The notes beneath the pieces were generated by a model. It searched no databases, was not told the origin of the DNA, and saw only the letters and a list, made by a program, of their open reading frames with translations. This document shows positions 17,470 to 62,237 of a stretch of DNA of 64,000 nt, one piece after another (the first letter of the stretch is position 1; each line of letters opens with the position of its first letter). Origin of the DNA: Somniosus microcephalus (Eukaryota); assembly GCA_052327205.1 (NCBI GenBank), contig JBMRGM010000035.1, positions 130,138,001 to 130,202,000 on the forward strand, given 5' to 3'. The translations under genes were made by a program, and so were the position numbers.

Positions 17470-17971
17470 TTAGTTCATGGTGACTGTTTGATTTTTTGGA
17501 TTCAGAAATACAAAACTGAAGATAGGATAAATCCTGTCATGGAATTTCCGATCAGTCGAGTGGACTATGGAATCACCAGCGGATTTTCGTCAACCATTAC
17601 GTAAATCCTTATTTTTGGCAGTTCAACAAGTTTGACGGCGTTGCCAAAGGTCCTCGCCAAATATTTTTCTTTCTCCACATTCCACAGCAACACAGTGTAT
17701 AATCCACTGCTAGATAATTAACATAGCCATGTCTTCCATTTGTATGACTCTGCAGATACACCCACCAACCAGACAGATCCGCTCTCCAATTGCACCTCCC
17801 AATAATAACTTCCGGAGGTAAGCCCTTCAGCTTCCTTTACATGCCACGTGCTGAGGTGCATCTCCTGAGCATCCATGGGCTTCTGTGGCGCATTGTCCCA
17901 CGTGGTGCTGATCTGGTCTGCATTCACGGCGAATCGTGGCTCCGAGATGTACTCGTTGAATTTGACAGCAA
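17470..17971 (-). pseudogene. Terminal B30.2/PRY-SPRY exon of copy A
   Basis: Acceptor TTTTTCTAG, phase 1. Reads AVKFNEYISEPRFAV...GLTSGSYYWEVQLESGSVWLVGVSAES (compare GFTSGRHYWEV). TAA at 17718-17720, then GLYTVLLWN...PKIRIYV, a frameshift, and KFHDRIYPIF...TMN*. Confidence 0.88.
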
Positions 17972-19454
17972 CTAGAAAAATGGAAAGTAACAATAAATAT
18001 TGGCTGGTACCAACATTTTACAATCTCTTCCCATCTCTATGTCTATTTCCCTCTCCACACCACTGTCTCTCTCCCATCTCTGGCACTCCATCTATCTCTA
18101 ACTCTGCCTTTTTGTCCTGATTTCTATCTGTTCTAGCTCTCTGCCGGGAATGTTAACTTTGGGTAATCATGTAAAATGTGCGATATAATATTGAACGTCC
18201 CTTATACATCCCTCCCGATTATACCTTCTATCGAGCGTGGTGTTTTATGTGCAGCAAATTGGATATCGCCCAATTTGCACCATAGCCCAACGTAAAAATA
18301 ACTCCCTCTGGATGTCTCTCTATTTCCGTATCACTCTCTTGCTTTCTCTCTGCACGTGTTGTCCTCTTTCCATTTCTCCCTCTCCAGCGTTCTCCTTTTC
18401 TCTCTGACATTCTTTTTTCCATTTGTGCTCTGTCAATTCCGAAACTCGAAATATTAATAAGGGGGTGAAATTGGGCATGGGTAGCGATGGAAAATGGGCG
18501 GCTTTGTTTCGATCGCCTGATATACGCAGGGTCGATATTCAGTTCAATTCAATCAATAGAGCTGATTAGACCTGAATATCGATTATGTTGTATAACGGTC
18601 AGCAAATATGATTCCGCCTGTTTTACTTTACTGCCCATGTCCAATTTCACACCTTCTATATCCTAAGGTGATTTGACTTTGTTGATTTCTGTCTGGAGAA
18701 GTGAGTTCTGTGCAATGTGCTTGTCCCTTATTTTAAGGTTAGGTGCTGGTCAAGCTATTTCCTGCTCTGCATTTTGGTGCCAGAGCGATCAATTCTCATG
18801 GTTATCGCCAGACGTTAAATGGGTGGGTACGGATGGGCATCCCATTTTACACTGCACTTATTTTTCGTTTCTGTTTACTTCACTGGAACTAAAAATAGGG
18901 AGACGCTCAAAACCGGCTGTCGACTCGATATCGCTCGTTTTACGCTATCATACAAAGGCACGACCTACCGCACTGTTAATCTACCACCATCTGAATCGCT
19001 GCAATGCAGGGGTCAATTTTCACTCTGACTGATGAATTTCTACAAATTTGCTTCAGTGGCAACGGAAATCTAGCAGAATGTAGAACAGGCCGACCATCAT
19101 TTTTCCAGTACCATCTTTGTCTAGTCCACGGTGAAAGTGAAAATCCACCCCATACAAACACCCACCAGTATGCTTACATATTGGAAGCGGTTGTTCGAGA
19201 GTATACTGAAGGTGCCCACTTTTATGTTTTGGATGCTAAGGTATGAATATGGCCTGATATAATATGTAATGTGTATGATCTACTTTCATAGACAGTTCCT
19301 ACTGCATACTAAGCTTAATTCTGATCCTATATATGCCACAAGTTCATTGTGTAAAATGTTTCCCAATCAGAATCATAGTGAAGTCTTAATATGAGCTCAT
19401 TACCAAATCAAAACATTCAACATATGACGAATGGAACAGTCTATTCTCGTTTAC

Positions 19455-19755: not shown

Positions 19756-19782
19756 TTGTGGTATTCATTACTTTTCTCAGCC
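19756..19782 (-). CDS. Copy A 27-nt microexon (GLRKVMNTT)
   Basis: TTTATTCCAG|...|GTAAGA, phase 1-1. Confidence 0.75.
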
Positions 19783-21243: not shown

Positions 21244-21279
21244 CTGCAGCTTTCAGAATTTCATTCAAGTTTTCGATTT
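21244..21279 (-). CDS. Copy A 36-nt microexon (EIENLNEILKAA)
   Basis: GCTTTTCAG|...GCAG|GTAAAT, phase 1-1. Confidence 0.8.
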
Positions 21280-22657: not shown

Positions 22658-22684
22658 CTTTCTCTTGGTCTCTGAGTTTTTTCT
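22658..22684 (-). CDS. Copy A 27-nt microexon (EKKLRDQEK)
   Basis: CCTGTATTAG|...GAAAG|GTAAAT, phase 1-1. Confidence 0.8.
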
Positions 22685-24507: not shown

Positions 24508-24543
24508 CTGCTTGTTCTAAAAAGTGGCTCAGTTTTTGAATCA
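24508..24543 (-). CDS. Copy A 36-nt microexon (VIQKLSHFLEQA)
   Basis: TTTGCTTTATTAG|...GCAG|GTGAGA, phase 1-1. Confidence 0.8.
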
Positions 24544-26029
24544 CTAATAAAGCAAAATTAAATCATTTCGGCTTTTATATTAAACTATATAGGCTACCAG
24601 CTTAGAATTTGAAGCTGTTTTTCTTTTCAGTCGAGATATTACAGCAACATTGCCAGTAACTGTAGAAATATTTTACTAACTATTTTTCTGAATAGTATAA
24701 CTGAATAAAAATGCATGTTTTTAAAACTTCAGCTAGCCAATATGATTCAAACTTTATTCTGCTTTGTCTGCCAGTATATGCAACGTACTTTAAATTTAGT
24801 TCCAGTAAATATTCATGTTAACCAACGCATGTTGTTCTTTGTAAATAACAAGCATGTGTGTAGCACGATCAGGAATAAAAAATCAACATTTTCAACTACA
24901 AAAATTTGAGAGACTGGGGATTAAAGAAACTAAATTATGACGCCCGTACTAATTATAGATACTAGACAGGCAGTTTGTAAAGTGGACTGTTGGATCACTT
25001 ATGTACTGCCAAATAAAACAAATGTCTCCCCAATAAGCATGCTAAAAAAGGTAAGGAATAAATAATAGAATTATGACAAAGGCAATGGCACATGGAATTA
25101 AAATACATTAAAATTAAAAGGCCAGCCTTTATATTATTCAATGGTGGAGCAAGCTCGAAGGGCTGAATGGCCTACTCCTTATCCTATTTCTTATTTCATA
25201 TGTTCTTATGAAGGCGGTCACCTGCAAACATAGATTGGTAGGTGGCAAAAAGCAAAGAGTAAAGGTTAATAGGGAAGTTAACTGTACTGGAAAAATGTTG
25301 CCATTGTTATTCCACAGTGGTCTGGGGCATGTATGATCCTTCTATATACTTAATTATTGTACACCGAACAATTGAGGGAACAATATAAAAATTGCTTTTG
25401 GCATCAGTTTGAATAATATACAAACTGTGACAAGGGTTGTGAAACGTTGCAAGAATACATAGAAGGATGAATAGATGGGTACCACTTTCAATTCCATGAA
25501 GAAGAATGCGAAGTAATGTGGCAAGTTAAGTAGATTAAGCCATAAAATGCCACATGCAATCTAAGGGTGTTGCATAACAAAAACAAGAAGATAATGTTGA
25601 ACTTGTGCAACATCTTAGTAAGGTCAAAGTGGGACTAGATGTCCGCGATTTCTACTTCAGTAAGCCTGGTGCAGTCTCAGCTTGCACTTGGGGAAGTTCT
25701 ATAGCCCAGCTGCCATTTTTGGAGAATAAGTGTGAACAGGCTGCTGTTGTTGGTGCCATTTGCCGGTGAAAGCTGTATTAAAGTCATATATCCAAAGTCA
25801 TTATGTGCAGATCGACATTCCATAGCATAGGAAGTTTATCAAAGTAATGGAAAGTTGCAAAAGATTCATCAGGATGTTACCATCTATTTCGAATTAGGTA
25901 AGAAGAGAAACTACAGCTGAAAAGATTATGGATAGAAATGATCAAGTACAGTCGTTCAAGATTCCAAAGCATTGCGTTGTGTAAAGTATAGACAGTTTCT
26001 ATTCATGTAGCAGATTGTTTCCACTGATG

Positions 26030-26558
26030 CCCTTGTTACCTCTTGACTTGAGTATTCCAATACTCTCGTGGCCAGCCTCCCATCTTCCCTACATAAACAT
26101 GAGCTCATCCAAAACTCTGCTGCCTGTATCCTAACACGCACCAAGTCGCATTCACCTATCACACCTGACCTACATTGGGTCCCCATTGACAATGCCTCGA
26201 TTTTAAAATTCTGATCCCTTTTTTCAAATTCCTCCAAGGTCCCGGCCCTCCTATCTCTGTAATCTCCTCCAGCCCTACAAACCTCCGAGAAGTCTGAGTA
26301 TCTCTAATCCTGGTGGATTTTATTCGCTGCACCATTGGTGGCCGTGCATAACGCTCTGTGAATTCCCTTCCTATACCTCTCCATCTCCTCCTTAAGATGC
26401 TCCATAAACCCTACCTCATTGAACAGCTTCTGGTCATCTGCCCTAATATCTCCTCATGTGGTTCAATGTCAAATTCTGTGTATTATCGCTCCTGTGAAGC
26501 GCCTTGGGCAGTTTACTACGTTAAAGGCGCTATATAAATGCACGTTGTTGTTTTTGAT
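26030..26558 (+). mobile_element. L2 LINE 3' fragment, left arm only
   Basis: ELIQNSAACILT-type sequence and tail GGCGCTATATAAATGCACGTTGTTG. The empty site is at ~62690 in the right arm. Confidence 0.85.
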
Positions 26559-26969
26559 GTTTTGTCAAACCGTAAGGACTGGGAACACATTTAAGATAAT
26601 GACAGCAAGATTTGAAAGGGGGCTTACAAAATTATTTACATAGAAGTTGGCCAGAATTGTTTTTATCTATTCCACACCCCGTTGGGTTCATATTTAATAT
26701 ATCAGCTTGGTAGGCACTATTGTCTATTTGGGGCAATTTTTCAGCAACTGTGAGATAAGCATTGACTGGGAGAATGCAGTGAGGACAATCTGTCGACGAG
26801 GCTCTCAGGCCACTAACTGAACCTGCCATTTATTTATTTATGCTCTCCGCCCACGTAGCTTCGATTAAAATCAGCCCTTTTGCATTCTATAATATCATAT
26901 AATTCTTCAAATAATATATCTCTTCCAAATAAAATATTTTATGAAGCGTTGAACATAATAAGCATTTAC

Positions 26970-26996
26970 CCGTGTCTTTCTGAATGACAGCTTTGT
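26970..26996 (-). CDS. Copy A 27-nt microexon (DKAVIQKDT)
   Basis: CCCCTTAACAG|...|GTAAAT; paralogue at 62211-62237. Confidence 0.85.
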
Positions 26997-27271
26997 CTGT
27001 TAAGGGGGAACATATTAGTTTATAACGTGCATCAAAGAATCTTGTGCTGAACTATGCTTTCACAAATTGCTTTTTGCAAGAGTAGATCCATAATGAGCAA
27101 AATGGCCCGAATATTTCACCAACAATGCATAGTTGCTAGCAAATACACAGAATAAGAAAAAAATTAATCGACTTCCGAATGTTTTCTTTAGCAAGTGAAA
27201 TGTAATGATTACCACAGTGCTATATTAATAACCATGTTGGATTATATATGAGTAATGTATTTCCTTCTCAC

Positions 27272-27307
27272 CTTTCTCAGACAGCGCTATTTCAGTAGTG
27301 CCTTTTT
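27272..27307 (-). CDS. Copy A 36-nt microexon (QKGTTEIALSEK)
   Basis: TGTTGTTTCAG|...GAAAG|GTGAGA; paralogue at 61894-61929. Confidence 0.85.
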
Positions 27308-30300
27308 CTGAAACAACAAAAACAAAACATTTCAGTTTCGTGTGCCTAGTTCAGTTTTCTGAGCTGCTCTATCTTTCAAGGCGATTTAATCTTGCCTCTT
27401 CTGCAAAAAAGCTCCATTTAGAGAGCTTTGCAGGTTAGTCCGTTCTAAAATTCCCCACGCCGAGTGGAAAAATGGAAGAAGTTGAGAAAGTAAGTCGTTT
27501 GCTGGTACTAAAGAAATATTAAATATTATAGCTCAATTGAAAGCAGAAAAGCTAGCTGCAAAATGTTGCATTGGATACTGGTGTTGGAAAGTTTATTACG
27601 TTTGTGTGAAATTACAAAGTGAAATGACGTTGGTGATAATAGTGGCTTAGAGACACTAGAGCAGTAGTGTTTTGACATTTGTTTATACGAGAAAAATACC
27701 TAACGAATGCTATGCTTAGCACATATATGTGAAGCACGCAAAGAGTGGTTTTACCACCTTTTGAAGCTGATTCAAAGTTCCTCAATTTACATTTTGTTCT
27801 AAGGGGAAAACGCAAGTAATCAGCAAACCGTAATTGCTCTCTGGCCGAAACAAACCTTGATAACAATAGTTTCAGCCGATTTCATGTCGGTGGTGTTACC
27901 TAGAGCAGATCAACTTTACGAGTTTGTTATCAACCCGTCGAAAAATAAATTTTCATGAAATGTGGGCAATGCAGTCTTAATCCCTTGGATTTTAGAAACA
28001 TAAAAATTGTAAGTAGAGACTCGTTTGTAACCCTGTCTATAGTTTTGAAGTACTGTAAATAATGGATTCGATTATCGATTTGAGAATTTGCATTGGTTAA
28101 TGAGAGCCTAGTCATGCCTAGGCTTTGACATACTTAGTGGAACTGGAGCAAGGAGGATTAAAAGCGTCGTGTAGAACTAGATACTTGAATCTTATAACAA
28201 GCGGAGTAGACATTTCAGAAGTGCACTGACCATAAAGCTTGGATGAACAACACATAAAACTTGGCAATTACACATAAAATGAGGAACAGCTTATCAGACA
28301 ACAGACGTGTCTTTCTGTTATAGATTCCTTTAATAAAGGAGACAGATTAGACAAACAAACAGCGTTATAACTAGTGCGGCTAATTGAATGGAGTGAGTGC
28401 CAATTGCGGACGATTCCAATTATATGCCTGCTGACGGGGAAAACAGCAGAGGGAATACTCAGAAGTCACCTTCCAGAATCAATGGAATTTTGGTTCGCAA
28501 CTTCGTTTCCGACACAACAAATGCAGCTATTTTGGTCATAAGAAGCTAGTATTTATATTAAATAATGATTAGGAGAACAAAAATATACAGGCAAATTGCA
28601 AACTTCCGGAGGGAACGGGTTCCGTCCTTAGACTTGGAACGTTAAGCATCACCAGAGCAGAGTGACCAAAGGAATCTCGGGCAGGGTCTATATTACGCTG
28701 GTGACTGGATCCGCCTCATTTTCCTTCCATTCAAATTAAGGAAAACCCTACAGTCTCTTCTTATCCAGGCCATGCTTAACGTCTAAACGATAAAGACGAA
28801 ATTATAGTCCTGAATAGAGTACAGTGAAGATAAGTGTAAAATGATTAGTATAGTAGATACTAAATGAAATCAAGAGCCCGATTTGAAAATGAGCGCTTCC
28901 ATATCGTGGGAGGGGGGAAGAGCTAGACTACAGTGTTCTAACGATCTCATGGTTGGAGTTCAATTGCGTTTTTGAACGAGCTGCTCACGCTTTCCAAAAG
29001 CAGCGTGCCCATGGAAAGTGCTGTAATTCGGGTGGCTCTAACGTTGAGCCCAGTCAACGAGCGGAGGGACGCGCATTGGGAGGGGGCGCATTCTTTGCGG
29101 CCAGGAAGAACAGATTATTTGAAAGTCCTTTTTTCTTTTCAAGTTTTTGCAGAGGCTTCAGATGGTGTCTTTAATTGGCTGAGTCTCTCAACGCCAAGTA
29201 GTAGGGTCCACCTGCCGGTACATTAAAATTGCACGGCGGTCCTATGGATATCACATGCCTCAGATTTGCATGGGTTAATGAGTATAGGGCCTGCTCGCCG
29301 TGAATGATGCGCCATCCATTTGAAGGTCCCTATGAAAAAGGGGAGCCCCCACGTCAGTGCAAAAGGGATGGGTAAAAACATTCTCATTTTCCTCACCCTA
29401 CCGCCCCGTTCCAACCCTACGGGGAAGAGAGGCGATTGGACATCGGCGTCAAAGAGTATGAATAATTATACAGCCTAGGTTAGGAAAAATATTTCAAACT
29501 GTCAGCCCGAAGCTAAGTGTCAGAAAGAGGAGCCAGCTTTATCTCTTTATCTGTACTATTTAGATAAGTCTAGAGCTTAACGTTGGTTTTATTCCTGTAC
29601 AAAGTATGGGATAGACCCATTTTGCAATACTTTATGAAGTTCCTGTCATTTTAGCATAGAATGCAGTTCTCTTTCAAAACCAAAAGCTTCAAGATAAATG
29701 GAAAGAAAATTCATGATCTCCCTTGCGATGAGCAACTGACAGCAGATTATATGACTTAAAGCTAAACAAGCTAATGCATTTGTCAAAACAACAAAGGAAT
29801 CTACTTTCAAAGCGTTAGAGAAACAATTTAATTGGCAGGGCCAAAGCAGCTAAAAAAGGAGACACAGATCTCCTATCCAGTAAATTTGTGAACTTCAATA
29901 ACTCAAAGGGGATCAACGCACACAGGACACCAGAAACACGAACGAACAAAGGTTTCGTACATGTCACTCAGTGCGGCAGCTATCCCTGTATAAATGGTGC
30001 AGTGAAATAAAGTACAACAGTTGCTGTCACTTATTTCTTCAGACCGGAATGGAAATGAGGCCACTGGGAAAATAAAATGTAACCATACTGGCTGCAATTA
30101 CTCGAAGGTTATCTTCTTCAATTAACATGTAGTGGACGAGGATGTGGTCAAATATTATTACAAAAGGGCAATTTTCAAATGCTGGTTAATATCTTAAAGT
30201 GTTCCGCATTAGTTTCAAAACAACCATAAACCAATGCGTTGCCTCATAATAACAACCTAAACAAATTCGTACTGAATGTTTAACTAATTAGAAACGAATG

Positions 30301-30311
30301 TTTTTGCTCAC

Positions 30312-30347
30312 GTATGCTTTTTAGGCTCTCCCTCAGATATTCCAGTT
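30312..30347 (-). CDS. Copy A 36-nt microexon (ELEYLRESLKSI)
   Basis: CTGCTTTTCAG|...|GTGAGC; the paralogue at 58887-58922 encodes the same peptide. Confidence 0.88.
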
Positions 30348-30893: not shown

Positions 30894-30920
30894 CTTTCTC
30901 TTGCAGACTGAGTTTATTTG
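30894..30920 (-). CDS. Copy A 27-nt microexon (ANKLSLQEK)
   Basis: TTCCTCAACAG|...GAAAG|GTGACT; paralogue at 53855-53881. Confidence 0.85.
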
Positions 30921-46847: not shown

Positions 46848-49800
46848 TTTATAAATTGCTTCAGTGCTCCCGCATTAAGTGAGCGAAAAGATGTGAGGAT
46901 TGCTGATTAACTATCTAGTGGTCGCTGCTACAAACTAGTCCCCCGGCCTGACGTGAACACAAGGCCGCCATCGACAAATACTTGTTAGCTGAATATCGCA
47001 TTTCCTGCCTAGTCTGTTTTAAACCTAAACGGTAACTTGCGACAAGCAGACCCATTCCTGCTGTTGCCTTCATCTTAGAACCAAAGGTTTCCGGCAGAAG
47101 CTCGGGGGCTGGAAGCTGCCAGTTTTTCTCCTTCCTCTTGTAAAACTAAGATCGATTATAAATCATAACTTCTACCTCGCCTAGTACAATCGTGGCTGTG
47201 CACTGATGGTGGATCGATTTTCGAACCTGCTGATATATGAGCTTCTTTGGCAAAGCAAGCCCAATATTTAGTGAATCAAAGGTCATGGATACTCGTTTCT
47301 AATGCTTTTGCTCTAACTTGCACTATCATATATTTGTTGCTAGTTTCAAGGTAAGTTGTTCTTAGGTCCTTTTGATCTTAGCTTCTATTTTTAAGTCCCA
47401 GACCAGATACACAAGTCGCATCCAGTGTGAGTAAACGTGTCTCTGATTGGAGAGTCAGATTTTGAAGGATTCTTTACTCGGAGTGTAACACGAATTCAGA
47501 CAGCGCTGACTACAGGGGGTGAAATTGGTCTACGTCGGTAGCGCAAAATGGGCGATAACAATTCGGCAGCTGTCGTTGGAACGAAAACCTGTCGGAGTAC
47601 AACACGGGATGTGGACATGCAACCACCCGTTTTGCGCTACCGACCATGAGCAATTTCGCCCTGCTGTTGTCTTCTTTTGAAAATGATGGTATAAAACCGG
47701 CTCCTTTTAAAAGGGAACTGTTGCATTTGTTGAAAACCACGGCCAGTTCATTCACTGCTCTGGCTTAATTATTTTTTACTTTAATGGAACGTTTCGTTTA
47801 ATTTTGCTATTCGCATCGTCATTTTATGAGTCATTCCGAGTCACTGTGTTCATTGTCAACACGTGACATTTTAAAAGACGTGGTGTTTGCAGCCTCTGCG
47901 CGTCATGGATTGAAAAACTTACCAATTATTATTGAATAATTCGTTATTATAGAGAAGCTTTCAAGAGGAGTACACAGGTTCGTCCTTTTTTGGGGTTAAG
48001 GCTTATTTTGGAGGAAAATTACTCACTGTTGCTTACACGGTTATTATCTTCTGCTCTATTCTGCAGTTAGAACATTTAGAATTGTTGGAAGATCTCTATT
48101 TTGAGCCTGAATTGAGATGGCAGGTTTCCCCCCATTTTTATCTTCTGCTCCTTTTGTAATCTGTCTTTCGCAACTTCCATTATTTCTTGCAATTTCATCA
48201 AAAGTTATGCAAATTCGCCAATATTACTGGCTAGCAAGTAAAATTAACTTAATTGTGTCATTCTGAATATTTTCATAAAGAATAACAAATGCGGTATATT
48301 TATCCCGTGTTTTTCTCGTTGATATATTCCACGAAAAGACAACAAAATCTACCGACAAATTACAGGCTCGCTGCTCATAAAGGGCAAGGGAAATGAAATC
48401 TCATCCTCCCTCAATGGTTCGGTAGTGTACGTTAAAGTATGATTGCCATGCAAGCCCATTGATCCCTGGTGGATGATGAGTTAGCTATCTTGACCTTGAA
48501 GGATGTTTCCAAATTATATGAATATTTTAGATAACGTCAATAAAGGGGCCCCAGAGTCAGCTGAAAGTATGTAGATGCGGGAATCGGTAAGGAATGGTAT
48601 GGGTCTGTACGCTGTCGATTGCCTTTTCCATTTGAACTCTCTAGAATCGTCCCTGAGGAATAAGCATGGAACATTTTCAAACACACCTAGGCAAAAAGCC
48701 AACTCCTACAGAGGTGGGACAGATCATTGGCGAGAAATATTGCTTTCTAAAAAGTGGAATTTAAAACTGAATGATATTTTTGTCCAGAAATATGGTCCAC
48801 AAGCAACCCATTAGCGCTATCCAATTTGAATGCCAATGTGGATCTCAAGTGGAAGAAAATACTTCAGTCGTTGCTGAAAAAATGTAAAGAAACGCAAGAC
48901 ACCATCTGTGGATACGGATTATAGAGGCTGGAGGTGAAGAAACTATCTCGGGTGCGAGAAAATAGAACTGTGGGTCTGAAAAAAATATTCTTTTCCGAAA
49001 CAGATTTAGACTTAACGTATAGTTAACCTGATGTGTTTACAGTTGTAAATTAATCATTGGGATATATATCAGGAATGTTGTGGGACAAGCAAAAAAATAA
49101 ATATATAATTATCAGACTTAAACTTCTCTGTCATCAAAACTGCAGAGATAGCGTTCTTAAAATGATAATAGACGGGGACCAAAATGTGTCAGCATTTCTG
49201 CAGTTATACCAGTTGCAACACAATTGAAATGACCATGAATGTTATCATCTACAACTTGATACAGTCAACAGTTTCCTTCCTGAAAGAAACAATCCACTTG
49301 TATTAACCTTTGAAAATCTTGATGCACCACGACGTCCTAATCTGATGAATCAGTCGAGTGGAATCTGTTTTCCTTTTATATATTTCAGAATAAAAGTAAG
49401 CGGGAAACAGTCTTCTCTCATTTTTATCCAGAGATCCTTGGAGGAACTCAGATATATTTATTTAATGCTCCTTTATGAATATTTTCGCTAATTTACAGGT
49501 ACTATATGGCGGCATTACGTCTACTCTGATTTAAATAATCAAATCAACTTTCTCCTAAACTTTAATGTTGACAAGCACCATATCAAGATGTTTCGGCTCT
49601 TTTCAGTCTGAAACCCCCTTCTGTTGCCATATATTTCGCGTTCAGCCTACATAGCGATCGTAATGCCAAGGATATCACAATTTTAACGCCAACTTTCGCT
49701 AACAATGATGAGGTGCATTTCTATGAAGCCAAGTTTGCTGTGCGAGTTTAGTTCGATTATACTTCCTCCGATAGGATTGGGCCGTCCTAATCTAAGAACG

Positions 49801-50748
49801 CTGTACACATAAAAATGTAAAATGCTGTTGTAATTACACCAACCTGAAATCCCTTTGATTAGGGAAACAATTTAAGTTTGGATTCAGTTCTGGTAACAAT
49901 TAGGGGATACTTTAAAAATAGACTTTAAAATTCTAAAGCAAATTCAGATAATTGTGAAACATGCATATGGGATCTTACGCTTTATCGATAAGACAATATA
50001 ATATAAAAAGAAAAGAAAATAATGCTAAACTTATATAACTCATCACTTAGTTGTAGTAGAATATTGGAAGCTAGTTTGGCGAATCGGCAGCCCGTTTTAG
50101 ATCTCTCCTGATTTTTATTCCTATTGACTTCAATGGAAATCAAAAACGGGAGTAAGATATAACAAATGGATGATCCAATGTTCGCCTGTTTTACACTATC
50201 GCACAAAGTCAAAATTAACCACAGGAACTCATTTAACACGAAAAAGGAAGGTTATGAGAAGAACGATTTAAAATTCTATGGGGGTAAGTTTAACCCTTGG
50301 TGATTATGCACAAGCGATATCCGAAAGTTTTGCACAATTAACAAGAGTTTAAATACCACCTCATAATTTTAAGTTTATTCGAATTAACTGAGTTCTTATG
50401 GTTAAGTTTGACTTTGTGTGAGTGTAAAACAGGCGGTATCTGCCATTGAGAATACACCCTATTCGATTGTGCTTTCTAAATTCATTATTATATTGTTATT
50501 CTGTTATCACTCAATGTTAAAATTACCCCGAGAGGTAAATGGGACCCAATCCCAGATCATCCGCTATAAACTATCGCCAAAAGTTAAAATTACCACCATT
50601 TACTGTTTGTCGCTTTTCAGGTTCCTTGTCCATTAAAACTAATTGGAAGAAATTGGCCTCTGCAGAAAGGGAGAAATTCCGACCGATAGATCATATTAAC
50701 ACGATAAAAAATGTTTCCATTTTGTTTTGAGCAGTTGTTGATTTTGAA

Positions 50749-50866
50749 ATGGCGGCACCTGTTGATGAGTACATAAACATTGGAACAGAGCCCTTTGAAG
50801 AAAACAATTTGAGCCAAGTGTACGATGGCGAAGATAAAGCGAAGTACAAATCCATGAGTGCAAAAG
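50749..50866 (+). CDS. Copy B candidate first coding exon
   Basis: GAAATGG start context; donor AAAG|GTAATT in phase 1; acceptor CTTTTCAG ending at 50620; in-frame TGA at 50728-50730 upstream of the ATG. Confidence 0.6.
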
Positions 50867-53800
50867 GTAATTGCATACAGGAAACAAGTAAAATTCACTG
50901 GAAATCTGATATGTGAAAGAAAGTGTAAATGGGGTAAACTTTCAACTTGCGACCAGGGTTAAAACTGGCATTGGGGATGAATGGAAATAACAATCCAATA
51001 GTTTCTCGCATGATGATCCAGGAGGACGGTGAAGTTTAACTTCACCGGGGAGAAAACGGAGTAGCGGATCGGCTGTCATAGTGGCCCAGATATTCCGATC
51101 GCAGGCCTCCTGCGGGTGGAGGACTGCGATCTGGAAAAATCTGCGCCCTGACCTGAGGGCTCCTGTGAGGCGCACAATTCTGCTGCTGGGCCTCACCAAA
51201 CTTCCGGATTGCAGGGCCCACGTATCCCAGAGGCGCAGGTAGTTCGCAGCCTCCCTGGGATCACGTGGGCCATGGGGAGCCAATCAGAGAAGGGAATCTC
51301 CCTTCATACATTTGACCTGTCAAATATATGAATGAAGATCACCCCAAAACATAGTAAAACTTCAAATAAATTGAATAAAAAATCACATTTTTTAAATGAC
51401 TTGAAAGTCCAATGAATTAACTATTTTAAAAAAAACTTTTAATTTTTGAAAAAAATAATTTAAGTTTTTTACGGGACTAAAAATAAACTTACCTTTTCTT
51501 AAAGTATTTTTAAATGATAAATCAGTGGAAAAAAATTATTTCTTACCTTTTTCAACTCTTATCCTGGCAAAAGCAGGCCTTACGCCTGGTTTTACCAGGC
51601 GCAAGAATTGTAAGTGTTTCCTGCGGGCGGAGGGTCTCCAAAAAGCAGAACTCTCCGCCCGCAGAGGCCCTTCTTGACAGATCAAAAATGCCGGTTTCCA
51701 GCGCATGGGCAGTGCATGCCTGACACCGGCATTTCTGATGTCCCTCTGGGTGGGTAAACAGCGCGTACCCACCCATAGGGATCGCAATATACGGCCCTAT
51801 ATTTTGCCTTAAAAGGAAAATCAGGCGGGGTGTATAACAAACGGCCGTTGGGCTGCGTCCCGTTCTGCACCTCTGTCGAAATTGAATTTTACCCCACACA
51901 ACCCAGTTTCACGACCAGGCAGCAATTTAAACATGTAACCTATGCACCAACCATGCTTTGACATACATTCATTGCATTGATTTGTTATGAGGTCCTATAA
52001 CAGGCACCACAACAGTTTAATAGTCATCCAGGCACATTATCAGATTGGCACCGAGATGTAAAACAAGCATTGCGAATTAACGCCTTTTATACAAACTCTC
52101 TGATTTTAATTTCCATATTTTGTAAATAAATCGCTTACAACTCACTGTTCTCAATCTGGGGCAATGAAAATCGTGGATTAAGTATCACGCCCTTCGACCA
52201 ATAGAAATAAATATTAAAACGTTAAACGTGAAAATAATTGATATAACTACCTAGTGTCATATAAGTGCATTGCAGAAAGCGCAACACTAGTAGAAAGTTT
52301 AAAAATTGCTGGTAAGAACTAACAAATCGGTAGCCATTAAAAAAGACTGTTATGCTCTTAACATATTTTTCGCCATTATAATAATGAAAATGTTGTTTTC
52401 TAAAACTATTACCAGGTGTTAGCTCGTGTTAACAAAACTCCTGTAACAAAAGACAGTCCTGTATAGATGCTACAATATTCACAGTTTGTGCTAATTGGAA
52501 ACTCAGTACGCAATGTTGCATCATTTAACATATCATGAATAGATGTATTCCACAATGCGCAAAATAACTCACATTTATCGCTTTCATTTTTGTTGTTTGC
52601 TATACCAGAACGCATGCTTAAAGAAAAAGAGGAAGGTATACTCTTTAGCACATTCACCAACGTGAACCAATCCCTGCGTGTTCTCGAATCACTTAGCAAA
52701 ATGCGACCAAGAATACATTTGTGCTACAACACGAAGTCTTTTTCTATATCGGGCCTTATGGAGATACACATAGTCACTTTAATACAACTGAACGTTCCTA
52801 AATTGGTACCAGAAATACAATTGGAGAGTGGCAGAGTCCATTTATAAAAACTGAAGTGCTCCTCAGATGGCTTGGCCATCTATATAAAGCATAGCTCAGC
52901 CAATGAGAGCAGTTAAGTTCCAGGTTCTATCCCAGTATGTGTTGAGTGATATGATGGGGTGAATTTTCAAATTAACGGCCACGTGGAAAACAGGTGGCCG
53001 AGGTCTGCCCGCGATTTACACGCCGTTCAATTTAGTTGAACTTGTAGTCAATGAAGGGTATAATCTAAGGGGATAATGTTGTCTTCTAGCAACAGTGAAA
53101 AACTGCGATATCGGATTGCCCACCTAGTATACATCTCTCCCGATTTTCCTTTCTATTGCAGTACAATACACAGCTGATCCGACAACGTCCAGCTTACATT
53201 ATCGTCCAAAGTCAATATTATCCGTGGCACTGTAAAATGGGTGTATGGTCTGAAATCGCCCGTTCCTGCCGGGAGGGTTAGGTGAGAGTTACAGCTTAAT
53301 GTTCTGTTCTTTACTGTTGAGTCAAAATACCGAAACCATAGCGCACAACGCAATGTCATATAGATAGACTAGCTGCAGTACTGCAAGTTTTAATTTCCAC
53401 TCTGCAGGAATATCGGGTCATTAAAGTACAACACGTAAAAAGAAAGCAGTAAATGGAGAAACAAACTGAATTCACGGTAGATAATTAAACTCAAGTTTTT
53501 GATCTTTCATTCAGAATTGAAAAAAATAATTGAAACTCTAACTGATAAAGGTGAGTATAACAAATAGCTAGTATTTACTTTAACATTTGTGAAAACTTTT
53601 ATACATATTTAATGGGATTTAACGCTGCTTCAAGGAGGCTCTTTAAATTAATAAAATGTCTATTGCATAAATGGCAAAGGAGTGCGTTCAATACAGTATT
53701 TTCTGTAACAATTTCATTCAAATATATAATCACTGTATTAGCTGTAGGTTATGCAATCCACGTTATTCCATTAATTCGTTTCATGTCAGTTGGAAAATGT

Positions 53801-56800
53801 ATATATTCCCTGCCAATACTGTGCATTTATTGCTCTTTTATTATTCATCAACAGAAAATTTACTCAGTCTGCAAGAGAAAGGTGTCTACTTCAAAAATGG
53901 GTTGTGTTGGTTATACTGTAAGGCCATAACAGAGGTTTCTGCCTTTAGTTACCAGGTCGTAAATGTCTTGTTTTGCACACTTTGTACAAAACTAATAACT
54001 TGCAGGACAACGGAGCATTACAGTTTAAGTCTTTTAATAAGCATTAGGTCTGATCTTACTCATAACACCACCATGGGGAAAAACATGGCGTTAGGACCCC
54101 TAGCCTGGGTCTTCAAACAATAGTAGTCCTTACAGATGCCTGCAGGCCAATGACAACTCAGCATGTGATCACATGTGAATATAATAGGTATTCCTTACAG
54201 ATGCCTGCGGGCCAATGATAATTCAATATGCAAATGTGACATCCCCTTTCTTTTAAAAGAAAAATGTTATGCATTACTTTTAAACCTTTCTTCTACATAA
54301 TGTTCTCGGTAGCATAAACATATAAGTAAACTCAGCATTTAACTAGCACTGAAAACATCTCAACGTTTAAATAACGATGTAGTTTTTTTTTAGGGCAGCG
54401 ATCCGCCTACACCCTTTGACAGTACACAAGTCAAGGATAACTCTAGGCTTGACCTCTCGTCCCGACCTTGTGTGGTATGGAACTGAGCATGCTCCTGAAT
54501 CGGTCAACAATGCAGGTTCAGGTTTAGGTTCAGGTAAATATGATGTGTTTTGTGTATTGCTCTGTTCATCACACTCTGTTGAACTGATCCTCTCGTCGGA
54601 ATGACGGTGTTGTTCCTTGGTGTTCAGGCGGTGCCTGTGATTGCAGCGGTACACCTGTCCTTCTGGGGTGTGGATGTGATACGATCACTCAGTGTCAGCT
54701 GGCTGGATGACGACTGCTGGCTTCCAGTAGTCATGCTCCTGGATTCTGATGGATTCTCCATTGTGCAGCGACGGCAGTAGTCTAGCTCACCTGTCATCGT
54801 ATCGCTTTTGGTGTTGCTGTCTCTGTACATGTTTTGCATGCACTTGCTTGCAGGTGACGACCTCTGGCTGCAGCTGCTGGTTGGTGCTTGGAAGGATTGC
54901 GCGAAGTCTGTGGCTCATCAACAGCTGTGCTGGTGACTTCAAGTTGGCAACTGGAGTGTTGCGGTACTCAAGGAGACTGATGTAGGGGTCTCTGTTGTCT
55001 GCTTTGGCTTTGTCCATGAGTGTTTCTGCAATCTGGACAGTTTTTACAGCACGGCCATTACTTTGAGGGTAATGTGGGTTTGATGTGACATGTGTGAAAT
55101 CCCATGCCTTGGCAAATGACTCAAACTCTTTTGATTTGTATTGGGGGCCATTGCCTGAGACTAAAGTTCCTACCATGTCATGCCTGGCAAAGGCTGCCTT
55201 TAGCTTGTGGATCACAGCTGCAGATGTGGTGCTGTGAAGCTTGTCCAGTTCAAAAAACCTGCTCTAGTAATCAACAGTCACTATGTAGTCCTCGTTGTTC
55301 CATGTGCACAGATCCGTTGCCGCGACCTGCCAGGGCCTGTCTGGGATACGGTGAGGTATCATGGGCTCTTTGACATTTGCTGGGCGGTGTTCTAGGCAAA
55401 TGGAACATTTTCCGACAATGTCCTCAATGTGTTTGCACATTCCGGGCCAAAACATAAATTCACGTGCTCTTTGTTTGCATTTTTCTATACCCATATGTCC
55501 AGCAAGAATTTTTGTCAACATCTCTTCTCTGAGACTGGTAGGAATGGTGATTTTCTCCCGTTTGAAGACGATTCTGTTGTTTTGTGACTGTTCATCTCTG
55601 TGGTTCCAGAATTCAGATATGCTCTGAGGGCATTTCCTCCTTTCCTCAGGCCATCCTTCATGTATGACCTTGCTCAGCAATGTGAGTTGTGCATCTTTCT
55701 CTGTTCTTGCTCGGATCTCCTTCAGTTTTGTGTCACTCACAGGTAAGCTGTTGTAAACCATGTGCACCTGCACATCCATGCCTTCACTGCGGCTGCTGTC
55801 CTGGTAGCTAAGAGACTTTCTGGAGAGTGTGTCTGCGACAGGAATGTCTTTGCCTGGACGGTGAATGATTGTGAAGTCGTACTTCTGTAGCTGAAGGATC
55901 ATTCTCTGTAGCCTTGGTGGGGCTGCAGCTAGTGGTTTCCTCATGATTGACTCAAGGGGCTTGTGGTCGTATTCCACAATGACTTGTCGGCCATAGACAT
56001 ACTGGTGGAAACGCTTACATCCAATCAGAATTGCATATAGCTCTTTCTTGATTTGAGCATAGTTGATTCCACTGTCTGTGAGAGACCTGGAAGCGTAGCC
56101 AATGGGCTTTCCTTCTTGCAGTAATACTGCACCTAGTCCATACTTTGATGTGTCCACTTGAAGTCTCAGCTCTTTGTTGGGATCGAAATAGGCAAGAGCT
56201 GGTTCTGGTTCTCTGGTGATTAGGTGTTTCATTTTGTGAAATGCTGTGTCATGCTGTTTGTCCCACAGGAACTCATTGCATTGTTTGAGCAACTGACGCA
56301 TGGGTGCATTGATTTCGGAGAGGCTTGGGGCAAACTTGGCTGAATAGTTAACCATTCCTAGTACTGTCTCTCGCTCTGTGCGGTTCTTCGGCGGCTCCAC
56401 CTTCTTGATGGTGGAGATTTTCTCTGGATCCGGCTTAATGCCATCAGTTGAGAGGCGATGCCCGAAATAACTGATCTTGGTGGATCCGACTATGCTTTTC
56501 TCGGGGATGAGCCAGATACCTTTCTCCCGTGATCTTTGTAGTATCACACGGAGGTTCCTGTCATGTTCCTCTCTATTCCTGCCATAGATGAGGATGTCAT
56601 CTACGATTGTGACTACTCCGTCAAGGCCTTCATATGTTTTGTCGATCTTCCACTGGAATTCATCCTGAGCTGAGATAAGACCAAATGGTAAACGCAGAAA
56701 TCGGTAGCGGTCAAATGGTGTGTTGAACGTTGTTAGCTTAGATGACTCTTCCGTGAGCTTGATAGCCCAGTATCCTGATCGTGCGTCCATTACACTGAAG

Positions 56801-59800
56801 TAACGTGCTCCCACTAGCTTGGGTGTGATGTCATCTAACGTTGGTAGAGGGTAGTGAGGGCATTTGATAGCCTTGTTCAAATCTCTGGGGTCGAGACAGA
56901 CTCTCAGCTTGCCTGTACATGGTTTCTCAACCACTACTAACGCGTTTACCCACTCTGTCGGTTCTGTTTCCTGGACGATGATTCCTGTATTCTCCATGCT
57001 CTGCAGCTCCTCCTTCAGGCAACTGCGTAGAGCAAGGGGTATCCTTCTCAGTGGGCAAACCACAGGGGTTGCTGCCAGGTCAAGGTGAATAGTGCATTCA
57101 CCTGGGAATAGTCCGATTCCTTTGAAAACGTCAGCAAACTCCTCCATGACTGTCTGCTTCTCAAGTGGTGCTGTCAATGATAGCACTAGCTTGACGAGGT
57201 CCATGTCTAAACATGCCTTTAGACCTAGCACTGGAGGTGCTCGAGTGTCAACAATGTAAAAGTCCAACATCATGTCACTTTCTTTGTACTTGCATTTCAT
57301 CACGCATGTGCCTTTTACAATGAGCTGCTCACCCCCATAGCTGGTCAGTCTGCGTGAGGTGGGCTGTAGCTCACACTCATCCTTCAAGCTGTGATACTCA
57401 CTCAGAGGAATTACATGAGCCTGAGCTCCAGTGTCTAGTTTAAACCTAAGCTCTGTGCCCTGTTTCCTACCTCAATATCTGCAAAAGCTTGCTCAGTCTC
57501 TGAAATCTGTTTTTTCTGTGACACAGAATCAATAAACAGTTCCTCTGCATTTGACTATCTGGCATTTGGCTGTCACTCACTGTGTGTACTGCTCTTCAAA
57601 AAACAGTCCTGCAAACTTTAGCAAAGTGGTTTCGTTTACCACATTTAGCATATTGCCTTCTTTTGGCAGGGCAATGCTCCTTTTCTCCATGCCAGTTGTT
57701 TCCACAATATCCACAGTTTTTGAAGCGTTTTATGTCTGTGTCGCCCATTTTTAGAACTCTCTCTATTCTTTCTGTTCTGAAACACGCTCTCTGGGCGGTG
57801 TTCTTTGGTGTGTGTCTATTAACTGCGTGCACTGTCTGTTCCTGTGAGCTGCTTGTGGCGCTGGTTATGGTTTTCAACTGTGCTTGGGCTATCTCGTGCG
57901 ATCTAGCTATGTCCATAGCTTTGTCCAGTGTTAGCCCGGACCCAACATTCAAAAATTTCTCTCTCACTTTAGCTGAATGTATTCCAAACACGATGCGGTC
58001 TCTGACCATCTCATCTTTATCTGCATATTCACAGTCTTTTACCAGCAGTTTTAACTCAGTCACGAAATGTTCAAACGACTCACTAGCTCATTGTACTTTC
58101 TCCTGAAACTTGTATCCAGCGAATATCGTGTTTGTCTTGGGCATCACATATGCTTCAAAACGGTCAAAATAACTTTTCAGTACCTTTGCTTCATCCGCGG
58201 TGAGAGACCATGTGTTAAAAATGTCTCTCACTTTTTCTCCGATCCACAGGAGTAGGTAGCTGCATCTTTCTTCCTCCCCTTTGCTTTTCAGCGGACCCAA
58301 GAACATCAACTCTACGTGTTGCTTGAAGTTGCGCCATTCTACAGGTAAGTTCAAAGATTCCCAATCGGTTCGAGGCAAGGGAACTCCAACGATGTCCATT
58401 TGAAATCCCTGTTCTGACACCATGTCTTGTTTTGCACACTTTGTACAATGATAATTCAATATGTAAATGTTACAGTAAAGATGTCTCAAATATGGCGCTG
58501 TCAAAGCTAATTTGCCCCGATCCTTTCTGTTATTATTGTTTCTTACTCCTATTGCGGGTCTTGTTGCTGTCCCTCAATAGTCGTGGTCCCACTCCCACCT
58601 GACCTTTCTCATCAGTGATATCAAGCTCAAGACTCTTTTGCAGGTCTTCATTGTAAACAGAACAATACGCTGCAATCATTCTTCAGATTGTGCTATTGTA
58701 TTGCAACACGTTCACAACCATACAGACAGCAGACACGCACGGCTATAATGTGGTTTGAGATGATGCTGATGGGAGCATGGGTGCCACTGTAGCTCTTCTA
58801 TGCGTGTTATTGCAGCATCCAGACAGTTTTTATAAGCCATTAATATGGAGTATATCAACTAAATTTGTTTTTGATTGTCTTTTCAGAACTAGAATATCTG
58901 CGAGAAAGTTTAAAAAGCATAAGTGAGCAACAACACTAGTTGCTAATTACTTAAACATTCAGGATGAAATAGTTTAGCTTATTATTGCATGGTGACGTAT
59001 TGATTTATGGTTGTTGTCAAACGAATACAGAACGGTTTAAGATATTTACAATTTTATGAAAATTGCCCTTTTGTTGTAATATTGTTCTGTCTACATCCTG
59101 GTCAAATATAAGTAGCCTGTAAAAGATAATTGACGAGGGGTCGCAGCCGATATGATTAAACTTTGTTTGCCCTGTAGCCTCATTTCCTTTCCAGTGTGAA
59201 GTGATAAGTAGCAGCAACTGTTGTAGCTCATTGCACTGCACCACGCAGACATGTATTTACACAGGGGTAGCTGCAACAACATGATCTCTGAATAACATTT
59301 ATAGATGCTTTGTTCATTCTTGTTTCTGGTGTCCTGTATGATTTGATTCCCTTTGAGTTATTGAGGTTCACTCAATTACATAGTAGGATAACTGTGTCGA
59401 GCCCGTCTGCTGCTTTGAACCTGCAAATTAAGTTGTTCTGCTAATGCTTTGAAAGTAGATTCCTTAGTTATTTTGAAAAATGCATTGGTTTGTTTATCTT
59501 CCAATAATATTCTAGGCACGGCATAATATTCTGCACTTCTCAGTTGCTCACCATAAGGGAAATCATAATTTTTGTTTCCTTCAATATTGAAGCATTTTTT
59601 TAAAAATGCAATGGCCTCCATATGGTCAGATGGTAGGAACTACATAAAGTATTGCAAAATGCGCCTATCCCAGACCTTGTACTGGAATAAAACTACTGTT
59701 GAGCTGTAGACTAATCAAAATAGTACAGTTATATAGATATTGCTGGCTCCTCTTTGTGCTACTAAGCTTTGGGATGCCATTTTGAAAGATTTTCCTGCAA

Positions 59801-62237
59801 TGCATACGAAATATTGCTATCATTAGGCTGCATCATTTTTCATACTCTTTCGGTCGATTTTCATTCACCTCCCCTTTGCGTAGAGTGGCAAAAGGGAGCT
59901 AGCAGGATGAAAATGGGAGTGTATTACATCACTCCTTTTCCACTGATGTCAGTGTCTTCCCATTTTGCTGGGAGTCCTCAAATCCACGGCCCATCGCTCG
60001 TGGAAAGTGAGCCCAAGGCTCATTAGCTCCAGCAAATCGGAGCCCTATGAAGTCACTGAATCTCCTTCAATAAAGTTACAAAGAAAAATATTATTTCAAA
60101 TATTTTCTGCTTATCCTAGACGCACATAAATCGCCCCCTCCCAATGCGCGATGCACAGTGGCATCCCCTTTGGATTGCTCCACTCCGCTGACTGGCCTCC
60201 ATGGTATAGCCGCCCGACTTTCTGTCTTTTCATGGGCAGATTGCTTTTGGAAAGTGCCAGCTGCTGATTCATAAAAGCAATGCAAGTCCGGCCATGAGTT
60301 GGTTTGAACACGACAGTCTAGCTCTTCTCCCCGTCACCCTATGGAACCGTTCATTTGCATATCGTTCCCTTGACTTTATTTGATGACTCCATACTAATCA
60401 TCTTACGTTAATGTTCACGGTAGTGAATTGAGGAGTAGAATTTCATCTTTATTGTTTTGGCGGTAAGTGTGGCTTGGGCGAGCAAAGAAAGGAAAATCAA
60501 GCGAAGGGCACAGTGTGCCTCTAACAAAATCTATTGAATTTTCCTTAATTTCAATAGAAGGAAATTCAGACACCAGTGTGTGATAGACCCACCCAAGTTT
60601 CCTTCTTCACTCTGCGCTGGTGATGTTTAACGTTCCAAGTGTCAAGTGGAAACTTGGTGCCTCTGGAATGTTGCTCTCTTACTCATTATTTAATATACAT
60701 GCCAAAGTCATATGATCCATATAGCTGCATTCGTTGCTTCAGAATCTGATTTAGGAACGAAAACTGTATTTATTCCGGAAAGTGACTTCTTAGCATATCC
60801 TCAGCTATTTTCCCAGTCAATATATGTATAATTAGAAAATTCCATGGTCGGCATTCTGTTCATTGAATTAACTGTACTATCCAAGAATTGTTTACATGTG
60901 TATCCTATCCCTTTAATCCCAGGTATCCATAACAGAAAGACTTGTTTGTTGTCTGAAAAGCTGTTCCTCATTGTATTTGTAATTGCAACATTGTGTGACT
61001 TTTTTAATCCACGCTCCATGGTCAGTGCACCTCTAAAATTTCTTCTTTGTCATTCTAAGATTCAAGTAATGGCTGGGTTCGCATTGCCCATCGCACAGAC
61101 TCAAAGACATACTCTAACCTATTCCAGAACATCAAATCTATAGGTTAATACCCATACCTCTGTTCTACCCACAAGGTTCATGTTTCTAAAACCAAATGGG
61201 TTAAATCTGCACTACCAAAACTTGATGAAAACCTATTATTAGAAAGGTTGATAACAAACTCATGAATTTGATGCCCTCTAGGTTACACCACCGATATTAA
61301 ATAGGCTAAACCTATTGCAATCAAACTCTGTTTCGGCAGAAGAGCTGTTAAGTTCGTAATGATTTCTTGTGTATTACTCTTTTTTTTAATGGAAACTGAG
61401 GAACTTACAACTAACGTCAAAAGGTTGATGTAATCATCTCTGGGTGCTTCACTAAATTGTGCTAAGAATAGGTTTTATCAGGTACTTTTCTTATATCAAT
61501 AAATGTTACAATATTATTTAGTGACTGTAAGCCACTATTATCATTAACGTCATTTCATTATATCATTTCACACAGCACCAATAAATGTTTCGATACAGTA
61601 TTGGATCCAAAATTTCTAGGCTAATGTTTCTGCTTTCAATTAATCTATCATAGTCAATACTTGTTAAGTAACAGCAAAAGATTTACTTTCTCAAGTTCTT
61701 CCCTTTTTGCACCTGATGCGGGGAATTCGGCAGTGAGTTCCCTTTGAAGATTAGAACGGACTATTCTTCAAAGGTCTCCATTTGGAGCTTTTTGCAACAG
61801 AGACATTAAAATTAATTCCCCTTGAAGCATCGAACAGCTGTGAAATCTGAAGTAGGCACAGCATAACTGAAGTGTTTTGATTTTATTTTTTAGGAGAAGG
61901 TACTACTGAAATAGCGCTGTCTGAGAAAGGTGACGAACAAAATAATTTTCTCATATTTAATCCATCATGCTGATTAATATGGCACTGTGATAATGTGGTA
62001 CAGCCCATTTCACTTGCACAGGAACTTATTCGGAAGTCATTTAATTTGTTTCTTAACCTATGCATTTTGCCAGCAAGATGCATCGATGGTGAACTATTCT
62101 GGCCATTTTGTTCATTCTGGATCCACCTTTGCTCCAAAATTCATTTGTTAAAACATAATTCAACAAAAGATTTTTTGCACGTTATAAACTATTTTATTCC
62201 CCTTTAACAGACAAAGCTCTCACTCAGAAAGACACGG
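50749..62237 (+). CDS. Copy B: paralogous microexon coiled-coil gene, 3' end outside the window (spliced; overall span given)
   Basis: MAAPVDEYINIGTEPFEENNLSQVYDGEDKAKYKSMSAK-ESATLVESLKIA-ERMLKEKEE-ELKKIIETLTDK-ENLLSLQEK-ELEYLRESLKSI-REGTTEIALSEK-DKALTQKDT, all in frame with AG/GT boundaries. Confidence 0.78.
51083..51797. mobile_element. Family-A MITE, right arm only
   Basis: TIRs GGCCCAGATATTCCGATC and GATCGCAATATACGGCCC. Confidence 0.85.
52276..52311 (+). CDS. Copy B 36-nt microexon (ESATLVESLKIA)
   Basis: CATTGCAG|...CTG|GTAAGA. Confidence 0.82.
52609..52635 (+). CDS. Copy B 27-nt microexon (ERMLKEKEE)
   Basis: TTTGCTATACCAG|...GAAG|GTATAC. Confidence 0.82.
53515..53550 (+). CDS. Copy B 36-nt microexon (ELKKIIETLTDK)
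   Basis: TCTTTCATTCAG|...AAAG|GTGAGT. Confidence 0.85.
53855..53881 (+). CDS. Copy B 27-nt microexon (ENLLSLQEK)
   Basis: TTCATCAACAG|...GAAAG|GTGTCT. Confidence 0.8.
55264..57387 (-). pseudogene. Gypsy pol fragment (RT-RNase H-integrase N-terminus)
   Basis: 707-aa ORF with LRVCLDPRDLN, LPFGL, IVDDILI, YAQIKKELYA and the GHMGIEKC zinc-binding region. The integrase core continues after a break at 54787-55215. Confidence 0.92.
57596..58402 (-). pseudogene. Gypsy gag, interrupted
   Basis: WRNFKQHVELMF, MVRDRIVFGI and CGYCG...CAKCGKRNHFAKVC-type zinc knuckles; stop between the two ORF pieces. Confidence 0.88.
58887..58922 (+). CDS. Copy B 36-nt microexon (ELEYLRESLKSI)
   Basis: TGTCTTTTCAG|...|GTGAGC. 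Confidence 0.88.
61894..61929 (+). CDS. Copy B 36-nt microexon (REGTTEIALSEK)
   Basis: TTTTATTTTTTAG|...GAAAG|GTGACG. Confidence 0.85.
62211..62237 (+). CDS. Copy B 27-nt microexon (DKALTQKDT)
   Basis: CCCCTTTAACAG|...|GTAAAT. Confidence 0.85.

Follow-up and report, generated by a model that had tools for sequence, protein, structure and literature searches.

We describe here a gene family of coiled-coil proteins with a terminal B30.2 domain in the shark Somniosus microcephalus, recognized in a 64,000-nucleotide (nt) stretch of DNA (the window; positions 130,138,001-130,202,000 of contig JBMRGM010000035.1, here C35, of a 6.4-Gb assembly). Coordinates are those of the window unless C35 or C32 is named. 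Based on its sequence, the chain of microexons on the plus strand of the window is predicted to form the 5' end of a gene, B, that spans 514 kb and joins about 100 microexons in frame to an intact B30.2 exon; the chain on the minus strand belongs to a second gene, A, which is probably a deleted, broken paralogue and a pseudogene. On balance, we favor the idea that the product of B is soluble, a coiled-coil rod of at most about 940 residues that forms dimers and displays B30.2 domains, serving as an adaptor or decoy.

Profile scans returned the same counts that a first-pass annotation of the window had given, namely, 11 microexons on the minus strand (33376 to 19756) and 7 on the plus strand (52276 to 62237), phase 1-1 and with AG/GT borders in 18 of 18. 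The lengths are mostly 36 and 27 nt, such that one 36+27 pair encodes 21 residues, or three heptads (Table 1). For every one of the 18, no generic donor within 12-60 nt scores better than the one at the called exon end, and none has a stop in the phase-1 frame, while the other two frames are closed in 11 and 8 of them. Generic splice scans were too strict or noisy, and exon profiles were used in their place. Because the first profiles were trained on sets including their own hits, their scores are inflated, and the valid test is that of held-out profiles trained on 89 exons far outside the window. At a score of >12, the held-out profiles recover 16 of the 18 microexons with zero extra calls, compared with 0 to 2 matches per shuffle over 30 shuffles. 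One antisense call (52599) overlaps a real exon and was discarded.

The remaining microexons of B and its B30.2 exon had been expected beyond position 64000. They are there, 90 microexons and an intact B30.2 exon, but the latter is not nearby; it lies about 500 kb further on. None of the 100 microexon calls for B contains a stop. After removal of two weak calls and one partial duplicate, the in silico join of the ATG exon, 97 microexons and the B30.2 exon gives 1,154 residues over 514 kb with 0 internal stops, junctions that are open partly by design because the exon scan admitted only lengths divisible by three. The 941-residue middle of the product (18% E, 18% K, 15% L and 0.3% P) would form a rod of about 140 nm if fully coiled. 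Its hydrophobic periodicity peaks at 3.5 (power of 2.91 versus ≤0.49 at ten other periods), and this heptad periodicity depends on the order of the exons: the real order gives 0.441 versus 0.28 ± 0.03, above 200 of 200 order shuffles. Downstream of the rod, the B30.2 exon has a SPRY match in Pfam (E = 6.5e-10), its fold matches the B30.2 domains of TRIM7 and BTN3A1, and its best sequence match among solved structures (PDB) is BTN3A1 (E = 3.5e-22); the ESM Atlas returned generic SPRY clusters only.

Where would translation of such a gene begin? Comparison of the copies points to a 132-nt exon as the first coding exon of B. Its ATG is conserved in four copies, and the exon is 84% identical between copies, versus 65 to 77% in the flanks, with a weak third-position excess (10/8/15). 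The exon is intact in B, carries a stop in paralogue C and is absent from A. Paralogue D has two tandem 5' blocks, D1 and D2 (C35:129,365,000-129,393,000), in which the ATG exon is frameshifted and intact, respectively. We infer that translation of B starts at the ATG at 50749. Three other elements, a 63-nt candidate exon, a block at 49189-49326 and a signal-peptide-like relic, have no third-position bias and were excluded from the coding count. The block, which is conserved in six copies, including the distant chain F (72%), is possibly a regulatory element.

Gene A has fared differently. The first-pass annotation had microexons that join without stops and a minus-strand chain that ends in a PRY-SPRY exon. 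A B30.2-like exon does start at 17971, and the microexons before it are open, but this exon is not: an in-frame TAA stands at codon 84 (of about 172), and a net loss of 19 nt shifts the frame. Moreover, A jumps from its 10th microexon (21244) to the homologue of the last microexon of B (19756), a loss of about 490 kb relative to B. The head-to-head orientation of the two chains is borne out by an inverted homology of 67 to 85% identity, introns included, between the 5' parts of A and B. What does not survive is a working divergently transcribed pair: A is broken and internally deleted, and its 5' chain is slightly closer to that of D (79% identity) than to that of B (75%) or C (71%), which argues for a rearranged cluster and not a dedicated pair. 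Treating C and A together as one inverted copy of D and B was also rejected, given that the pairwise identities are nearly star-like (71 to 79%). In a second sample, DNA contigs run across the region and differ from it at few positions; the region is therefore not an assembly artefact.

Beyond A and B, there are at least six further paralogues, on C35, which bears the major histocompatibility complex (MHC), as well as on C32. This cluster evolves by birth and death: B and E are intact, A and C are broken, and D is doubtful. Chain F may lack a B30.2 exon or run into D. The paralogue at C32:5,343,497-5,438,790 has at least 18 exons of 36 and 27 nt that alternate and are nearly identical; the three-heptad 36+27 module has here been expanded in tandem recently and independently of the other paralogues. 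A DNA match on C6 was rejected as a purine simple repeat. For the microexons, the ratio of nonsynonymous to synonymous substitution rates (dN/dS) is 0.36 for A-B (10 pairs), 0.43 for A-C (10 pairs), 0.56 for C-B (23 pairs) and 0.65 for D-B (24 pairs), with one mispaired C-B exon pair remaining in the set; the D-B differences fall 42/25/60 by codon position.

The family is not confined to this species. The closest protein relatives of the window sequence are from sharks, B30.2 orthologues of 59 to 61% identity occur in three other sharks, and RefSeq holds relatives of 101 to 460 residues from Chiloscyllium, Hemiscyllium, Cetorhinus, Rhincodon, Scyliorhinus, Narcine, Leucoraja and Callorhinchus. 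The supposition that the family might be unannotated holds only in part, as relatives have short models under BTN-like, TRIM-like (TRIM39/58/69) or A33-like names even though they lack the domains so implied; in the five relatives scanned, among them those from Narcine, Scyliorhinus, Callorhinchus and Hemiscyllium, Pfam finds SPRY/PRY and nothing else. In a quick tree of 102 B30.2 domains (rows labelled by regular expression; 14 isoform or fragment rows and segments of <130 residues excluded), 16 rows, 7 from this genome and 9 from RefSeq relatives, form a long-branched clade (Shimodaira-Hasegawa-like approximate likelihood ratio test [SH-aLRT], 100). The 86 other rows (TRIM, BTN and other), including all RING- or Ig-bearing rows and those with Ig and transmembrane (TM) segments, fall outside it.

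The search of chondrichthyan proteins that the first-pass annotation had recommended found coiled-coil and B30.2 relatives, two of which match the exons of B in order. The N termini of these two, a catshark and a ray protein, align in order to the exons of B (0 and 3 of 200 shuffles reach the score) and to those of E (0 and 0 of 200). Of the six internal isoform differences among homologues, four are exactly 9 residues, equal to one 27-nt exon, and the Chiloscyllium one matches the second-last exon of B at 7/9 positions. The RefSeq homologue models presumably rest on transcripts. Long RING-bearing database matches were rejected as ordinary TRIMs or fusions (62 to 125 bits per domain versus 166 to 258 for family members). 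No description of this family was found in the literature searched, in which subscription journals are thinly covered, and PMC12841164 may, in its supplements, count some of these proteins among the butyrophilins. In total, we are apparently dealing with an undescribed chondrichthyan B30.2 subfamily.

Several observations weigh against B as a working gene with a full-length product. Selection on the microexons is purifying but modest, and its estimate is biased by exon ascertainment. The B30.2 domain of D is near neutral (dN/dS of 0.86 to 1.07; 0.86 versus B); given that A and C are broken and that the B30.2 exon of D is also frameshifted, B might be decaying too. Two RNA sequencing runs of S. 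microcephalus (101-nt reads, 24% and 31% of reads used, tissue unknown), aligned to 44001-64000, give zero depth in the unique 5' bins of B, including the 132-nt exon region and the microexon bins, with repeats alone covered. This result counts against broad expression of the 5' end of B, but exons of 27 to 36 nt may be too short to align. Among the relatives, conservation of exon order is not significant for four of six homologues, the shorter ones. Finally, of 7,999 database candidates scored, no family member exceeds 460 residues, and the full 97-exon product is therefore unattested.

Could the whole A-D subcluster, B included, consist of decaying pseudogenes, with only E and the C32 genes at work? 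We consider this unlikely, although it is the rival that survives best. The missing reads, the broken or near-neutral copies and the closure of the leader-like and 63-nt exons upstream in B all fit such decay. However, B has retained its ATG exon, 97 exons free of stops and a B30.2 exon that is intact, while copies at 71 to 79% identity lost theirs. The exon order of B keeps the heptad register, the A-B dN/dS for B30.2 is 0.54, and the orthologues in three other sharks also speak against decay.

A second concern, somewhat less probable, is that the 514-kb chain is not one unit and that short subsets of exons near the B30.2 exon are expressed from internal promoters. The RefSeq family members of 175 to 460 residues are what one would see if this were so, but such short models are also to be expected if annotation is blind to microexons. 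In addition, the best-scoring candidates inside B include no further B30.2 exon, 5' block or ATG exon, D matches B at both ends and through the stretches examined, and the periodicity depends on the full order of the exons.

The first-pass annotation had also reported no Ig, RING or B-box exon in the window, and this absence was confirmed with working positive controls over about 1.8 Mb. Eight Ig and 15 RING/B-box probes found their control loci, a BTN locus and two TRIM loci, at E values of 1e-16 to 1e-63 (1e-59 and 1e-63 for the TRIM controls). In 1.62 Mb around the genes, a span that excluded C35 128.74-129.34, 129.44-129.66 and 129.896-129.906 Mb between the paralogues, the same probes found nothing credible by way of Ig, RING or B-box exons; they matched B30.2 exons alone, apart from two weak matches (E = 0.001 and 0.007), which were traced to a non-Ig N terminus and rejected. 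A further 200 kb upstream of E and of a C32 gene contained no RING or B-box (7 probes) and one weak intronic Ig-probe match, on C32 (E = 0.007). Likewise, none of the 47 genome-wide matches to the BTN IgC domain (PF22705) lies between 107.5 and 151.2 Mb of C35. Based on these controlled searches and on homologues of the same layout, the proposal of a shark family of coiled-coil and B30.2 genes lacking Ig, RING and B-box domains is upheld.

Might the family nonetheless be membrane bound, as are BTN and BG proteins, or secreted, as are vespryn-type B30.2 proteins with their functional signal peptide? A leader or TM exon would then be spliced in upstream of the 132-nt exon, which we regard as improbable. 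The 132-nt exon does have a phase-1 acceptor, with an open frame ahead of its ATG, the signal-peptide-like relic precedes it in each of the five 5' blocks (in D1 its donor is phase 1), the homologue from the skate Leucoraja starts with a hydrophobic stretch, and the BTN3A1 structure match is suggestive. However, the frame of the relic is closed in five of five copies, with no codon bias (9/10/11 by position), and in B it may be 5' untranslated region, a dead exon or leader, or a chance resemblance. Upstream of the four genes A to D, a scan without a positive control found no phase-1 exon that is hydrophobic and TM-like, no Ig exon was found, and the homologues from Narcine, Scyliorhinus and Callorhinchus have a polar start.

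How does this family relate to known systems? Class IV TRIM proteins (RING-B-box-coiled coil-B30.2) have E3 ligase activity and form antiparallel dimers. Like them, B combines a coiled coil with a C-terminal B30.2 domain, and its B30.2 fold matches that of TRIM7; unlike them, it has no RING or B-box, its coiled coil is built from dozens of symmetric microexons, and its B30.2 domain falls in a separate clade. Butyrophilins (BTN/BTNL) also have a heptad region followed by a terminal B30.2 domain (described in parts of PMC8813856 and PMC4046983), and shark BTNs are likewise on the MHC chromosome (from a portion of PMC12841164). However, no IgV, IgC2 or TM exon was found here, BTNs have few heptad exons compared with about 100 small exons here, the B30.2 domains are in separate clades, and true BTN IgC exons are >20 Mb away. 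The chicken BG genes, also MHC linked, encode long coiled-coil tails from many tiny exons, 13 to 36 exons of 21 or 24 nt that are subject to copy number change, recombination and alternative splicing (according to sections of PMC4046983). They differ in that the exons here are 27 and 36 nt, form 21-residue pairs and number up to about 100, and in that BG proteins have IgV and TM but, in the passages of PMC8813856 that treat them, no B30.2 domain, the reverse of what was found here. In fish NLR-B30.2 proteins, the domains that accompany B30.2 are NACHT and LRR; the five homologues scanned here have no Pfam match besides SPRY/PRY. Because the defining features of BTN, BG and TRIM were looked for and are lacking, the family is not a member of any of the three; it is a variant of the coiled-coil and B30.2 theme with an extreme gene structure.

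In our model of B as a soluble rod, the transcript would be translated from the ATG at 50749 into a cytoplasmic protein resembling a butyrophilin or BG tail that lacks its membrane anchor, or a TRIM stripped of RING and B-box. The rod would dimerise and thereby present two B30.2 domains. B30.2 is a ligand-binding domain, and genes that encode it, including TRIM genes, have undergone MHC-linked multigene expansion (as covered in parts of PMC3137616 and, for the domain and its expansion, PMC8813856). We posit that the role of the product in innate immunity would be that of an adaptor or decoy that binds ligands and not that of an E3 ligase. Given that every exon is a symmetric phase 1-1 cassette, the length of the rod could be changed by exon skipping and by unequal recombination; the latter is seen between paralogues, and the isoforms of the homologues suggest the former. 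A structural or cytoskeletal rod in one tissue, of the kind reported for BG-derived zipper protein, with B30.2 as a docking module and no immune role, would fit the great length of the product, the actin-myosin regulation ascribed to a BG tail product (in a part of PMC4046983), and the narrow expression that zero reads in two runs allow, but it is the least probable alternative, since constant length would be expected of it and since MHC linkage and rapid copy gain and loss fit immune multigene families.

The surroundings of the family deserve a brief description. MHC class I matches fall on C35 in 36 of 37 cases, and the best-scoring B30.2 exons of the genome are mostly on this contig. About 28 matches to butyrophilin IgC exons, at C35 151.2-167.7 Mb and 107.5 Mb, are interspersed with many B30.2 exons, a greatly enlarged shark BTN region of the MHC class I chromosome. 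Two MHC class I matches (C35:77,509,783 and 77,528,064) lie within open frames of 6,282 and 3,686 codons, which are probably simple repeats beside an exon. In the window, intron 4 of B, but not A, contains an insertion resembling a long terminal repeat (LTR) retroelement (53953-58476; open reading frames at 54787-58573, minus strand), with gag, reverse transcriptase and integrase-like frames recognised by eye, which we take to be of the Gypsy type; the RNA depth of 100 to 330 over it comes mostly from diverged copies elsewhere. Reverse transcriptase fragments of the long interspersed nuclear element (LINE) type lie at 3582-4651, 12398-13768, 41508-42487 and 44858-45660, and a repeat of about 750 nt is present in at least five copies (15782-16548, 20316-20921, 22879-23624, 46136-46852 and 51077-51803).

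Table 1. Features of genes A and B, their paralogues and their database relatives (window coordinates unless C35 or C32 is named)
Feature	Position	Strand	Basis or remark
A terminal B30.2 (PRY-SPRY) exon, broken	17470..17971	-	55% to exon of B; in-frame TAA 17720-17718; 19 nt lost (net) near 17585
A microexon 11, 27 nt	19756..19782	-	Homologue of the final microexon in B and D
A microexon 10, 36 nt	21244..21279	-	Profile scan and held-out test
A microexon 9, 27 nt	22658..22684	-	Profile scan and held-out test
A microexon 8, 36 nt	24508..24543	-	Profile scan and held-out test
A microexon 7, 27 nt	26970..26996	-	Profile scan and held-out test
A microexon 6, 36 nt	27272..27307	-	Profile scan and held-out test
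A microexon 5, 36 nt	30312..30347	-	Profile scan and held-out test
A microexon 4, 27 nt	30894..30920	-	Profile scan and held-out test
A microexon 3, 36 nt	31208..31243	-	Profile scan and held-out test
A microexon 2, 27 nt	33000..33026	-	Profile scan and held-out test
A microexon 1, 36 nt	33341..33376	-	Profile scan and held-out test
Candidate 63-nt phase 1-1 exon, uncertain	35815..35877	-	Frame open in A and D2, interrupted by stops in B and C; codon positions unbiased
Signal-peptide-like relic in A, status uncertain	38947..39018	-	Comparison of 5' blocks; stop, donor lost
Inverted homology, left arm (5' part of A)	25818..43208	-	Self-comparison
Inverted homology, right arm (5' part of B)	43949..62830	+	Self-comparison
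Signal-peptide-like relic in B	47285..47350	+	Comparison of 5' blocks; donor at 47350 intact; ATG frame closed by 7-nt deletion and stops
B predicted first coding exon, 132 nt	50735..50866	+	Comparison of copies; phase-1 donor; ATG at 50749 in good Kozak context
B microexon 1, 36 nt	52276..52311	+	Profile scan and held-out test
B microexon 2, 27 nt	52609..52635	+	Profile scan and held-out test
B microexon 3, 36 nt	53515..53550	+	Profile scan and held-out test
B microexon 4, 27 nt	53855..53881	+	Profile scan and held-out test
B microexon 5, 36 nt	58887..58922	+	Profile scan and held-out test
B microexon 6, 36 nt	61894..61929	+	Profile scan and held-out test
B microexon 7, 27 nt	62211..62237	+	Profile scans; 90 more beyond window
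B terminal B30.2 exon, intact	C35:130,702,273-130,702,793	+	About 500 kb past window
Paralogue C	C35	-	About 30 exons; B30.2 with 7 stops
Paralogue D	C35 129.37-129.86 Mb	+	Matches B at both ends and in stretches examined; late 1-nt deletion in B30.2
Paralogue E	C35	+	About 34 exons, intact
Microexon chain F	C35:128.69-129.35 Mb		No B30.2 among listed matches before 5' blocks of D
Three B30.2 genes	C32		Two with microexons in DNA examined
RefSeq family members, 175-460 residues			XP_043533988/9, XP_060706632, XP_078422387, XP_069775384-90, XP_038672306-10, XP_038668997, XP_042191566-8, XP_055510696/7

What do these observations mean? The window is better read as one giant gene and a probably dead copy than as a pair. 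With about 100 symmetric microexons in one gene, far beyond the 13 to 36 of chicken BG, the family offers a testable model for the evolution of coiled-coil length by exon gain, loss and skipping and for the origin of BTN and BG tails. It also points to a B30.2 subfamily that is old, spans the chondrichthyans and has been truncated and misnamed BTN or TRIM in annotation, a misnaming that can mislead surveys of shark butyrophilins and of the partners of gamma-delta T cells. Tentatively, we speculate that chondrichthyans might possess, on the MHC chromosome and beside TRIM, BTN and NLR, a separate B30.2 architecture: a headless rod from about 100 symmetric cassette exons, spliced combinatorially, by which one gene could yield B30.2 sensors on stalks of adjustable length (up to about 140 nm). 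Such an architecture, hidden from annotation by its microexons, would go back to the split of chimaeras and elasmobranchs and may preserve the ancestral module of the BTN and BG tails.

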